Shown one piece after another: positions 38,265 to 40,488 of a stretch of DNA of 40,864 bases. Every line of letters starts with the position of its first letter. Position 1 is the stretch's first letter. The position numbers and the translations under genes are program-made. The DNA is taken from the IMG/VR virus record IMGVR_UViG_2565956716_000008. One strand, 5' to 3'. The DNA comes from a virus (lineage: Duplodnaviria > Heunggongvirae > Uroviricota > Caudoviricetes). Below the pieces are notes generated by a model that saw nothing but the letters and a program-made list of their open reading frames with translations, had not been told where the DNA came from and did not search any database.

Positions 38265-39362
38265 TCAAGAGGCCTTATTTCTGCTCCTTTGGAGCTCTTC
38301 AAAACGATTATGTAAAGATTTCGGATACAGTTCGGTATATACCTGCCATAGCACGTTTAATGAACGATGCCCTGTAACCTGGGCGACTTCCTCAATACTA
38401 AAACCAGCCTCAAATAAGCGACTTGCCCCTTCTCTACGCAAATCATGGTATCGCAGATCTTTAATACCTAATTTGCTTCTTACCCTCTGGAATCCCGCAG
38501 TAACAGAAGTGCTGTTATATGGAAAAATGAATTCTGATTTTTTGGGTTGTCGTTGGACGATATCCCAGGCTTCCCCAAGCAAGGCTACTTTCATATGGTT
38601 GCCTTCCTTTTTACGTGGATCTTTCCTGTCTCTTACGAGTATGGATTTTTGTTCCTGATCGAGATCCTCCCATCGTAATCGGCATACTTCACCGATTCGC
38701 ATACATGACCACACAGAAAATTTGAGGATATCAACGAACGGAATTTTTGAGCATTTATGTGTAGATCGTTGTTGAAGACCTTCAATGAGCATGTCCAGTT
38801 CATCAGATGCCGGTCTACGATTACGACGATTTGATTTACCAATTAAACCAAGTTTAAGTAGATATGGACGAGCGGCTTTTGCTGGGTTTGATGTGTAATT
38901 AATTCCATATACAGGTTTGGCAGCATCCAGAACACTGCCAAGATAACTAACATCGTGGCTAACTGTAGCTGGACCTGCACCAGCGTTGTTTCTTAGCCTG
39001 CAATGTTCAATTACGTCATTTTCTGTCAGTTCAGATAGTTTGAGCGCGGAGACGTCACTATCCATAAGCAGTTCCAGCACATATCTTTTAGTACGGCCTG
39101 CTTTACCTCCGGCATTTGGGTCATTTAAATATTTGTGTAGTAAGTCACGGACTGTAAGTCCGTCAACTGCATTTGATGATGGAATGCCATATAGATCTAA
39201 TTCCATCACTTTCTGTGTGCCCCATGTTTTGGCATGAGCATGTTTAGGGAATGTTTTACTTTCCCTGTAAGTGATAACACCTTTTTCTTTGATAATCACA
39301 TTACAGCGATAGCGTGGTGTGCCATCGGATTTTAGTCGTTTCTCTATGTTATAGTATGCCAT
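38265..39362 (-). CDS. tyrosine integrase, dusA-associated
   Basis: 365 aa; R...HxLRR and conserved Tyr catalytic region; divergent from dusA. Confidence 0.85.
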   Translation of the reverse strand: MAYYNIEKRLKSDGTPRYRCNVIIKEKGVITYRESKTFPKHAHAKTWGTQKVMELDLYGIPSSNAVDGLTVRDLLHKYLNDPNAGGKAGRTKRYVLELLMDSDVSALKLSELTENDVIEHCRLRNNAGAGPATVSHDVSYLGSVLDAAKPVYGINYTSNPAKAARPYLLKLGLIGKSNRRNRRPASDELDMLIEGLQQRSTHKCSKIPFVDILKFSVWSCMRIGEVCRLRWEDLDQEQKSILVRDRKDPRKKEGNHMKVALLGEAWDIVQRQPKKSEFIFPYNSTSVTAGFQRVRSKLGIKDLRYHDLRREGASRLFEAGFSIEEVAQVTGHRSLNVLWQVYTELYPKSLHNRFEELQRSRNKAS

Positions 39363-39381
39363 TACACGACCTCGTTATTTC

Positions 39382-39418
39382 GGGTTCCCATAAAACGTGG
39401 GAACCTGTGCGGGAACCT
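39382..39418. repeat. GGGAACC motif repeats in int-dusA intergenic region (candidate integrase arm sites)
   Basis: gggttccc (inverted) then gggaacct twice directly repeated. Confidence 0.3.
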
Positions 39419-39450
39419 AACGCGAGAAAAATAGCCTGAAATGTTCAAAA

Positions 39451-40488
39451 ATGCACGATAATCATGAAACACAAAAAATTAATCAAACCAGCGTGATGCC
39501 TGAAAAAACTGGTGTTTACTGGAATTCTCGGTTTAGCATTGCTCCTATGCTCGACTGGACGGACAGACATTGCCGCTATTTCTTGCGTCTGCTTTCCCGC
39601 AATACGTTGCTGTATACCGAAATGGTGACCACAGGGGCGATTATTCACGGTAAAGGTGATTACCTGGCGTACAGTGAAGAAGAACATCCGGTAGCGTTGC
39701 AACTCGGCGGTAGCGATCCGGCGGCGCTGGCACAGTGTGCGAAGCTGGCAGAAGCGCGTGGATATGATGAGATCAACCTGAATGTCGGCTGCCCGTCTGA
39801 CCGGGTGCAGAACGGCATGTTTGGTGCGTGTCTGATGGGTAATGCGCAGCTGGTTGCCGACTGTGTGAAAGCGATGCGCGATGTGGTGTCGATTCCAGTG
39901 ACGGTGAAAACGCGTATTGGCATCGATGACCAGGACAGCTATGAATTTCTCTGCGATTTCATCAACACTGTTTCCGGCAAAGGCGAGTGTGAGATGTTTA
40001 TCATCCACGCACGTAAAGCCTGGCTTTCGGGGTTAAGCCCGAAAGAAAACCGTGAAATCCCGCCGCTCGATTATCCGCGTGTGTATCAACTGAAGCGTGA
40101 CTTTCCGCATCTGACAATGTCGATTAACGGTGGTATCAAGTCGCTGGAAGAGGCCAAAGCACACCTGCAACATATGGATGGCGTGATGGTCGGGCGCGAG
40201 GCGTATCAGAATCCGGGTATTCTGGCGGCAGTAGACCGGGAGATCTTTGGTTCCTCGGATACCGATGCCGATCCGGTGGCGGTAGTGCGCGCCATGTATC
40301 CGTACATTGAGCGTGAACTCAGCCAGGGGACGTATCTCGGCCATATTACCCGGCATATGTTGGGCTTGTTCCAGGGTATTCCTGGCGCGCGGCAGTGGCG
40401 GCGTTATTTAAGTGAAAATGCCCATAAAGCGGGTGCAGACATTAATGTGCTGGAACACGCGCTCAAACTGGTGGCGGATAAGCGTTAA
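39451..40488 (+). CDS. dusA: tRNA-dihydrouridine synthase A
   Basis: [17 protein letters not shown] and full-length Dus family sequence; alternative start at 39496. Confidence 0.9.

Follow-up and report, generated by a model that had tools for sequence, protein, structure and literature searches.

The right-hand junction (attR) of a ~39.8-kb prophage in Escherichia coli dusA, a prophage of an already well-described kind

The right end of this phage sequence raises the question of where the prophage stops and the host gene dusA begins, and which of the two supplied the start of that gene. The window, by which we mean the whole 40,864-nucleotide stretch of DNA that was analysed, carries an integrase gene, int (38265-39362, minus strand; 365 aa), that is divergent from dusA (39451-40488, plus strand; PF01207) across a spacer of exactly 88 bp (39363-39450). 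The original prediction had described this divergent pair and its spacer, and both are as described. We put the probability at about 95% that a temperate phage of ~39.8 kb, carrying an mEp460-type integration module, lies in the 5' end of dusA and that 38265-39554 is its attR end. The insertion point is 100 bp into dusA, a tRNA-modification gene, and a phage-borne gene start keeps the gene whole. Prophages of this ordinary kind have already been published, and the finding serves mainly to annotate dusA and the prophage borders correctly; the locus is a clean, well-resolved case of a published mechanism and holds little that is new.

The int product is a dusA-specific tyrosine integrase of the DAI family. 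It matches PF00589 (E 1e-20) and has the catalytic RHRH + Y residues (R222, H306, R309, H332 and Y342), which are invariant or nearly so in 52 homologues. Across the integrases of mEp460, 1720a-02, Lys8385Vzw and phiSTEC1575-Stx2k, its sequence identity is 97.5-99.2%, with 99.2% for phage 1720a-02 and 97.5% for mEp460. The mEp460 integrase was listed among dusA-associated integrases by Farrugia et al. (2015; PMC4482086), and experiments with phage 1720a-02 have placed its integration 100 bp into dusA (PMC6328086). The gene also has the context that marks DAI members, as it is divergent from dusA and phage genes lie beyond it. As predicted, int adjoins late genes, namely a downstream DinI-like gene (37955-38203, minus strand; PF06183, E 1e-19), a Hin/Gin-type invertase, and tail-fibre and baseplate genes. 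A promoter-like site is found near the DinI-like gene, at 38268-38239.

The anatomy of the junction and the position of the crossover were established by a four-way alignment of the mEp460 virion attP, the attL of strain KH_005, the attR of the window, and an empty K-12-type attB. The core ATGCTCGA (39547-39554, plus strand; dusA codons 33-35) is the same in all four, with partly identical flanks, and marks the region of crossover, where the prophage ends on its right side. In attP, the inverted pentamers TCCTA and TAGGA flank TGCTCGA. The 7-base core reported for phage 1720a-02 matches the core of the window, and the C. rodentium attB quoted in the same study, as a reverse complement, contains the same core as ATGCTCGA (PMC6328086). 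A second copy of the core (attL), sought inside the window, is not present there; the window begins 254 bp inside the prophage. The original prediction had proposed a search for the same core at or beyond the left window edge, and attL with the matching core was found 254 bp outside that edge, in the genome of KH_005, which is 100% identical to window 1-1300 and served as the source of attL in place of the window's own record. When aligned with the packaged mEp460 genome, attP proves to be the left part of attR followed by the right part of attL, and the same holds in strain 81. Near-identical phages have this predicted attP in their packaged genomes. In both KH_005 and strain 81, attL holds a displaced fragment of the original dusA 5' end, which is annotated as a partial tRNA-dihydrouridine synthase. 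The int-dusA junction occurs in 729 of 5426 complete E. coli genomes, all 5426 of which have dusA.

The dusA gene of the window is accordingly of two origins on either side of the core. The phage-supplied 5' end (39447-39546, plus strand) has its ATG at 39451 and comprises codons 1-32, and the host-derived remainder extends from 39555 to 40488 on the same strand. An alignment to a prophage-free allele, which had also been proposed, gave a sharp divergence step at the core: compared with the K-12-type gene, 18 of 96 nucleotides differ upstream and 12 of 934 downstream (Fisher p = 2e-12). The replacement segment is 93% identical to its counterpart in the mEp460 virion genome and 81% identical to the K-12-type host allele, and its likeness to host dusA starts 4 bp before the ATG; the encoded protein begins MHDNHETQ.... 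The gene pspG comes after dusA, as in every E. coli genome examined. The suggestion that the first codons of dusA, roughly 15-40 of them, might be phage-derived can now be made exact: 32 codons plus three shared-core codons, the same ~100-bp segment adjoining int in the packaged mEp460 genome.

Could the divergent 5' end instead reflect allelic variation or a tract of host recombination, with the integrase a coincidental neighbour? Empty-site E. coli do hold two very different dusA 5' alleles, a K-12 type and a B2 type. Yet the exact segment adjoins int in the virion genomes of mEp460-type phages, the host's own dusA 5' fragment is intact at the opposite end of the prophage, and the divergence junction falls at the experimentally defined core; we regard such an origin as extremely improbable, and the attP alignment refutes the allelic reading. 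A more serious possibility, though still an unlikely one, is that the prophage is a fixed defective remnant, unable to excise, whose junction is a fossil. Decayed relatives exist, including the 8.5-kb remnant of strain 81, whose int-dusA junction is identical, and members in other genera with a frameshifted int or a 20-codon int stub. The present prophage, however, has full-length int (365 aa) and rdfN, and two intact att sites; its head, tail, lysis and regulatory genes form a full set, and its sequence is 97-99% identical to that of inducible phages. Integration by a temperate phage, with attR at its right-hand end, is the reading that we carry forward.

At the opposite end of this temperate prophage, rdfN (1250-1531, minus strand) closes the leftward early operon and encodes a PrtN-family recombination directionality factor, or excisionase (PF11112, E 4e-23 over 72 of 93 residues), that is 61% identical to an RdfN-type protein of a V. 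cholerae island. An excisionase-like PrtN/AlpA gene had been predicted at this distant position; the gene is real and matches RdfN, but its family is PrtN/RdfN and not AlpA. RdfN, a PF11112 protein, is a proven recombination directionality factor of dusA-specific elements, its requirement for Int-mediated excision having been shown for IMEVchUSA3 only (PMC8409611). The placement of int and the excisionase gene at opposite prophage ends, unlike the int-xis pair of lambda, was likewise foreseen; the two are about 37 kb apart. In a lambda-type cassette, xis and int stand on the same side of attP and are co-transcribed, whereas here the two genes are parted in the prophage because attP lies between them in the circular genome. 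Since rdfN sits across attP from int, it comes to the attL end when the phage is integrated. The order rdfN-attP-int is found in mEp460 and in the Yersinia phage YeP1, where it is compact and the repeat layout is the same as here. The separation of int and rdfN is typical of the dusA-element family and is not special to the present prophage.

The surroundings of rdfN bear on its expression. Between rdfN and a convergent small ORF, a G+C-rich hairpin with T runs (1221-1246; L003 5221-5246) is, as a consensus match, likely to be a bidirectional terminator that ends the early-left transcript. Cargo genes occupy the interval between attL and rdfN (1-989, plus strand), namely a Panacea-domain (SocA-like) ORF (1-573; PF13274, E 2e-19) and an overlapping partner (570-989) that matches phrog_19071 only (function unassigned); this slot holds different ORFs in mEp460 and strain 81. 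Because rdfN ends the phage early-left operon beside a LexA-like CI repressor, it is probably SOS-triggered here, and at the end of a repressor-controlled operon it would be made only on induction. Such a position suggests a possible answer to how rdfN is switched on in phage-like dusA elements.

Sequence searches against solved structures gave no match for RdfN and weak XerA matches only for Int, and the folds were therefore examined by predicting and comparing structures. In the AF2 model of Int, residues 2-58 form three strands (2-10, 16-26 and 29-38) and a helix (41-58) with pLDDT about 90, and full-length lambda Int (1z1g, 5j0n) aligns to the model over 358-370 columns. Int is predicted to have a lambda-Int-like three-domain build, in which an N-terminal arm-binding domain precedes the core-binding and catalytic domains, and RdfN is modelled with a winged-helix / MerR-like excisionase fold.

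The GGGAACC repeats lie in the int-dusA spacer where the original prediction placed them, with one inverted copy (39383-39389) and two direct copies (39399-39405 and 39411-39417) standing 130-164 bp before the core. Exact GGGAACC occurs eight times in the whole window, and three copies within 35 bp have a Poisson probability of ~5e-8 per position, or ~2e-3 after a whole-window scan. The other attP arm carries two copies (GGGAGCC and GGGAACC), 44-61 bp past the core (L003 3790-3807). We read the repeats, found as they are on both attP arms, as probable arm-type integrase binding sites, the three in the spacer belonging to the int-proximal arm, because in related elements the repeat words change with the integrase while the layout stays. 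One inverted and two direct copies are kept, with other words, in YeP1 (GGGGTGCT) and in Pluralibacter and Silvania (GGTGTAC / GGTGTCC).

It is possible, if rather doubtful, that the repeats bind RdfN or a regulator of divergent int and dusA promoters, and not Int. Two copies form a direct repeat with a spacing of 11-12 bp, which is given as typical of excisionase sites (PMC7498355), and the repeats sit between two divergent genes. Against this stands the occurrence of the word on both attP arms, whereas Xis of lambda binds one arm only, and the lambda-Int-like N-terminal domain predicted for Int would need such arm sites. The repeat word does vary with Int in relatives, but rdfN varies too, and this covariation does not tell Int and RdfN apart. 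With integrase binding as the preferred reading, the repeats offer workers on dusA elements a testable map of probable arm sites, which is a small addition.

No promoter was recognised in the 88-bp spacer when 38100-39700 was scanned for a simple sigma-70 consensus. A candidate for a dusA promoter supplied by the element is an extended -10 box, TGTTATAGT (39347-39355, plus strand), that overlaps int codons 3-6 on the opposite strand. The form TGnTATA(G/A)T occurs 198-203 bp upstream of the core in all seven int-bearing elements examined and in locus L069, where int is reduced to a stub of 20 codons; in native dusA genes, TGCTATAGT stands at about -99 (-99 to -102). From this cross-species conservation only, we infer that TGTTATAGT may serve as the dusA promoter. 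If confirmed, the promoter of dusA would fall within the start region of int, beside the probable integrase sites.

The phage combines a lambdoid early region, SfV/SfII-type myovirus structural genes and an mEp460-type integration module, and its circular genome runs from tail fibre through invertase, dinI, int, attP, the cargo ORFs and rdfN to the early-left operon. The start of dusA, from its initiation codon to codon 32, is present in attP as a ~100-bp copy ending in the 7-8 bp core ATGCTCGA, with probable arm sites on both sides. In the mechanism that we propose, Int, a tyrosine recombinase that also has an arm-binding domain at its N-terminus, would swap strands within the core. The host dusA promoter and first 32 codons would stay at attL, the phage dusA start with its own promoter would join the rest of dusA in frame at attR, and int and rdfN would be left at opposite prophage ends; excision would require Int and RdfN together. 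Integration and excision at this site, the joint requirement for Int and RdfN, and the element-supplied promoter are proposed here by analogy with published experiments on near-identical or homologous elements. For example, experiments on the Stx2d phage 1720a-02 demonstrated that it is SOS-induced and that its excision depends on Int (Balasubramanian et al., 2019; PMC6328086), and IMEVchUSA3 gives dusA a new promoter and a 35-residue N-terminus, as seen with a lacZ fusion in E. coli (PMC8409611).

The closest known systems, 1720a-02 and mEp460, have the same dusA 5' copy, core and GGGAACC repeats in attP, and likewise a PrtN-type excisionase across attP. The present prophage differs from them in its SfV/SfII-type contractile-tail structural genes, its invertible tail-fibre segment and the Panacea-domain pair between attP and rdfN; mEp460 has a lambda-type tail fibre, 1720a-02 carries stx2, and the remaining genome is unlike that of the present prophage. 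The DAI elements of Farrugia et al. (2015) also have int divergent from dusA, a new 5' end with the original kept at attL, semiconserved att repeats (~21-bp direct repeats at both ends) and a short identical core, and a prtN homologue, present here too, is found in 64% of DAI islands (PMC4482086). We see no difference in kind from these elements; arm-type repeats, a promoter box inside int and int-less relics are not described in that study. IMEVchUSA3 has its PF11112 directionality factor across attP from int, as here, but that island is mobilised by a plasmid, and the plasmid's activator AcaCD drives its rdfN, whereas rdfN here lies in a phage early-left operon (Rivard et al., 2021; PMC8409611). 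Lambda shares with the present system a three-domain heterobivalent Int and a winged-helix excisionase, and its attP likewise has repeats on both arms and a 7-bp overlap between inverted core sites. It differs in that xis neighbours int on a single side of attP, attB lies between genes and there is no rebuilding of a host gene, whereas here attP lies between rdfN and int and contains a gene fragment.

A side observation concerns the empty site. It is tempting to speculate, and we lean somewhat towards this view, that an older dusA-specific element left the prophage-free K-12-type dusA 5' end, seen in about 80% of complete genomes, as its domesticated relic. The proposed relic is a low-G+C block of 1.7 kb, its end coinciding exactly with the att core, and it includes a DUF2713 gene (yjbL/yjbM), the long N-terminus MHGNSEMQKINQTSAMPEKTDVHWSGRFSV and, 188 bp upstream of the core, a promoter box. 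A short form of dusA is found in B2-type E. coli, E. albertii, E. whittamii and about 70 other enterobacterial species. In it the promoter TGCTATAGTAGCGCCCC precedes the core by about 99 bp (99-102), and the N-terminus is of the form M(P/S)xES...PA(H/Y)RFSIAPMLD; if the relic view holds, the short form would be ancestral. A decay series is visible, from intact int through frameshifted int and a 20-codon stub to none. We searched K-12-type genomes between zur and DUF2713 for an old attL in the form of a B2-like dusA 5' relic, the region upstream of K-12-type dusA for remains of int, and phage genomes for the DUF2713 protein, and found none of these; nor was a phage with the K-12-type leader found, the ~107-bp coding copy alone matching, at 81-84%. 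We also considered whether the C-to-T mismatch in the B2-type core (TGCTTGA) bars integration, and rejected this, as a synthetic B2-type attL junction is present at full length in 45 genomes, in several of them with 100% identity.

Were the relic view true, present phages would enter a second-hand site, element-supplied gene starts would have been fixed repeatedly after integrase loss, the reference K-12 dusA promoter and N-terminus would be of mobile-element origin, and the two E. coli dusA alleles would differ through an old integration event. The reverse origin, in which the phages captured their dusA start from K-12-type hosts, is less likely, because the long 'MH.N.E' form is common to elements with 63-70% identical integrases and the relatives of the hosts have the short form.

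The prophage in the window lies in the E. coli dusA gene, with its tyrosine integrase gene (int, 38265-39362, minus strand) separated from dusA (39451-40488, plus strand) by an 88-bp spacer (39363-39450). Of 5426 complete E. coli genomes, all have a dusA match to window 38200-39700, and only 729 have the int-dusA junction. We set the right junction, attR, against three reference sites: the empty host site (attB) of a K-12-type genome, the attL of strain KH_005, whose sequence matches window 1-1300 at 100% identity, and the attP of phage mEp460 as found in its packaged genome. 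In this four-way alignment attP is composed of the left part of attR and the right part of attL, and ATGCTCGA (39547-39554, dusA codons 33-35) is common to all four sites. Within attP, the inverted pentamers TCCTA and TAGGA stand on either side of the 7-bp TGCTCGA, the arrangement expected when core-type sites flank an overlap region. The second core copy, sought at the other prophage end, is present in KH_005, where it maps 254 bp beyond the window's left edge. This gives a prophage of about 39.8 kb, of which the window lacks only the final 254 bp. The attL from KH_005 holds the promoter and the first codons of the host's own dusA; the annotation there reads partial tRNA-dihydrouridine synthase. 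A prophage of the same type survives in strain 81 (NZ_CP088131.1, locus L002 4355-12880) as an 8.5-kb remnant, in which int, dinI and the invertase gene are joined straight to early-left genes and all structural genes are deleted. Both of its att junctions are intact, its att picture is identical to that of the four-way alignment, and it is 100% identical to window 38200-39700.

The original prediction also held that the first codons of dusA may be phage-derived, and alignment to the prophage-free allele bears this out with a sharp step at the core. Compared with the K-12-type allele, the window has 18 differences in 96 positions upstream of the core (9 in 32 residues at the protein level) and 12 in 934 positions downstream (Fisher p = 2e-12). 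The phage copy resembles the host from 4 bp before the start codon onwards, with no similarity further upstream. An extended -10 box, TGnTATA(G/A)T, is the likely dusA promoter supplied by the element: all int-bearing elements examined have it 198-203 bp ahead of the core, and so does a Silvania hatchlandensis locus with only an int stub. The window's copy (39347-39355), missed by a simple consensus promoter scan, overlaps int codons 3-6 on the opposite strand, and its position is matched in mEp460 (L004) and in the loci L005, L024, L057 and L067-L069. Native enterobacterial dusA genes carry TGCTATAGTAGCGCCCC about 99 bp (99-102) before the core, followed by a G+C-rich stretch; this is roughly 100 bp closer to the core than the element's box.

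The integrase has catalytic residues R222, H306, R309, H332 and Y342, conserved in 52 homologues. It shares 99.2% identity with the phage 1720a-02 enzyme and 97.5-98.9% with the integrases of mEp460, Lys8385Vzw and phiSTEC1575-Stx2k. An AlphaFold model (pLDDT 85) puts a unit of three strands and one helix (residues 2-58) before the core-binding and catalytic domains, and full-length lambda integrase aligns to the model across 358-370 columns; on the strength of these two features, the modelled protein has the build of an arm-binding integrase. At the opposite prophage end, the PrtN-family gene (rdfN, 1250-1531, minus strand) encodes a PF11112 protein that is 61% identical to a 76-residue Vibrio cholerae protein beside zur at an island edge, and its model (pLDDT 90) has a fold like that of P2 Cox, RdfS, Pukovnik Xis, an AlpA-type excisionase and Tn916 Xis. 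The last gene of a leftward operon at the window's left end (with exonuclease, DUF551, Ea22-like, YfdR and YfdQ genes) is rdfN; this operon lies next to the gene for a cleavable, LexA-like CI repressor (6692-7345, minus strand), and rdfN is followed by a predicted hairpin terminator (1221-1246). RdfN, we infer, is produced only upon induction, and int must have a promoter of its own at the attR end.

The circular genome would have the order dinI, int, attP, cargo, rdfN and the early-left operon, whereas Yersinia phage YeP1 has a compact rdfN-attP-int arrangement from which the cargo is absent. The integrase would bridge arm and core sites and exchange strands within TGCTCGA, leaving attL with the host promoter and first 32 codons, while attR would join the phage copy to dusA in frame. 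Integration would also separate int from rdfN, which explains the placement of the two genes at opposite prophage ends, a layout unlike that of lambda.

Much of this has precedent. The dusA-associated integrases were defined by Farrugia et al. (2015; PMC4482086), who found that their elements replace the dusA 5' end and excise as circles, listed mEp460 among the integrase hits, and noted a prtN homologue, its role then unassigned, in 64% of islands. The PrtN-domain protein RdfN was subsequently identified as the excision factor, with int and rdfN on opposite sides of attP, and in E. coli the element was found to give dusA both a new promoter and a new N-terminus of 35 residues (Rivard et al., 2021; PMC8409611). 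Phage 1720a-02 integrates 100 bp into dusA with a 7-base core; its attP formation requires int, and its induction needs RecA (Balasubramanian et al., 2019; PMC6328086). The dusA interpretation is therefore correct and already known, and the prophage is a known kind of element with near-identical characterised relatives. In reviews, yjbM, zur and dusA count as distinct insertion sites of Stx phages (PMC8065619); since each of the three genes flanks the present attB, a single site has probably been given several names.

The spacer repeats, which like the other named features lie where first described, comprise one inverted GGGAACC (39383-39389) and two direct copies (39399-39405 and 39411-39417). 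The word occurs 8 times on both strands of the 40,864 bp, against about 5 expected; three copies within 35 bp have a Poisson probability of about 5e-8 at a given place and about 2e-3 over the whole window. In the reconstructed attP, these three copies stand 130-164 bp before the core, and two further copies (GGGAGCC and GGGAACC) 44-61 bp after it. Related elements keep the layout of one inverted and two direct copies between int and dusA, and the word varies with the integrase: it is GGGAACC / GGGAGCC in a Kosakonia element (integrase 82% identical to the window's), GGGGTGCT in YeP1 (68%), with two copies on the far arm too, and GGTGTAC / GGTGTCC both in a Pluralibacter element (70%) and beside the Silvania int stub. 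By sequence, the repeats behave as candidate integrase arm sites, although they may instead bind RdfN.

To the left of int lie a DinI-like gene (37955-38203, minus strand) and a Hin/Gin-type serine invertase gene (37248-37811, plus strand), preceded by baseplate, tail-fibre and tail-fibre-assembly genes with an inverted alternative set; pspG, to the right of dusA, is the last gene in the window's right-end order. Across the late region, identity is 97-98% with Shigella phages SfII, SfI, SfIV and SfV and with Escherichia phage vB_EcoM-689R6. The invertible tail-fibre region spans 35040-37811, with a fibre gene and an assembly gene on the plus strand and the alternative fibre end and assembly gene inverted at 36339-37171. 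The DinI-like gene has its own promoter-like site (TTGACA, 18 nt, AAAAAT; 38268-38239), and its product could damp RecA-dependent induction; such a gene also lies near int in mEp460 (adjacent) and in YeP1 (about 1.6 kb off, with other ORFs between). Between attL and rdfN, a gene for a Panacea-domain protein (SocA-like antitoxin) overlaps a 139-codon partner with no assigned function. The two (1-989, plus strand) are oriented as the displaced host dusA promoter at attL, and may be a toxin-antitoxin or defence pair. This slot is a cargo hotspot, because mEp460 and strain 81 hold different ORFs there.

A side observation concerns the host alleles. Empty-site dusA 5' ends in E. coli fall into two unrelated alleles. 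In B2-type genomes such as E2348/69, zur is followed by 133 bp (L008 3869-4001) and the core, and the N-terminus is short. The K-12-type has 1686 bp in that place (L001 1406-3091), holding a DUF2713 gene and a long N-terminus (MHGNSEMQ...). Both stretches are equivalent to window ~39363-39546, and the two alleles are alike again from about 8 bp before the att core. The left half of the K-12-type is present in 4379 of the 5426 genomes. Among 80 enterobacterial species loci the short form occurs in 70, including E. albertii and E. whittamii; the native form is also seen in Citrobacter, Klebsiella and other genera. The long 'MH.N.E' form stands beside a dusA-associated integrase in five loci (L009, L024, L057, L067 and L068), and it also occurs in four int-less ones.

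We consider it more probable than not, from sequence comparison, that an older dusA-specific element left the K-12-type start behind as a relic, because of its low G+C, its species distribution, its closeness to element copies and a decay series. The flanks have 50-55% G+C and the 1.7-kb block 30-38%. Identity of the K-12-type segment is 83-84% with Kosakonia/Phytobacter element copies and 81% with the window's; with native forms it is only 54-62%, which is background for this scoring. The K-12-type start clusters with element-supplied starts, away from the native form. The decay series runs from a frameshifted int in Intestinirhabdus alba (L057 1381-2361), through Silvania hatchlandensis (L069 2350-2409), where only the first 20 int codons are kept along with the promoter box, repeats and replacement dusA start, to K-12-type E. 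coli and two Kosakonia species, which have no int. We found no statement of this idea in the literature searched. Lysogens occur with both alleles. The B2-type attB (L008 4010-4017) has TGCTTGA rather than TGCTCGA in the presumed overlap; despite this one mismatch, at least 45 genomes have the B2-type attL (matches include H86-H110), with the host T kept.
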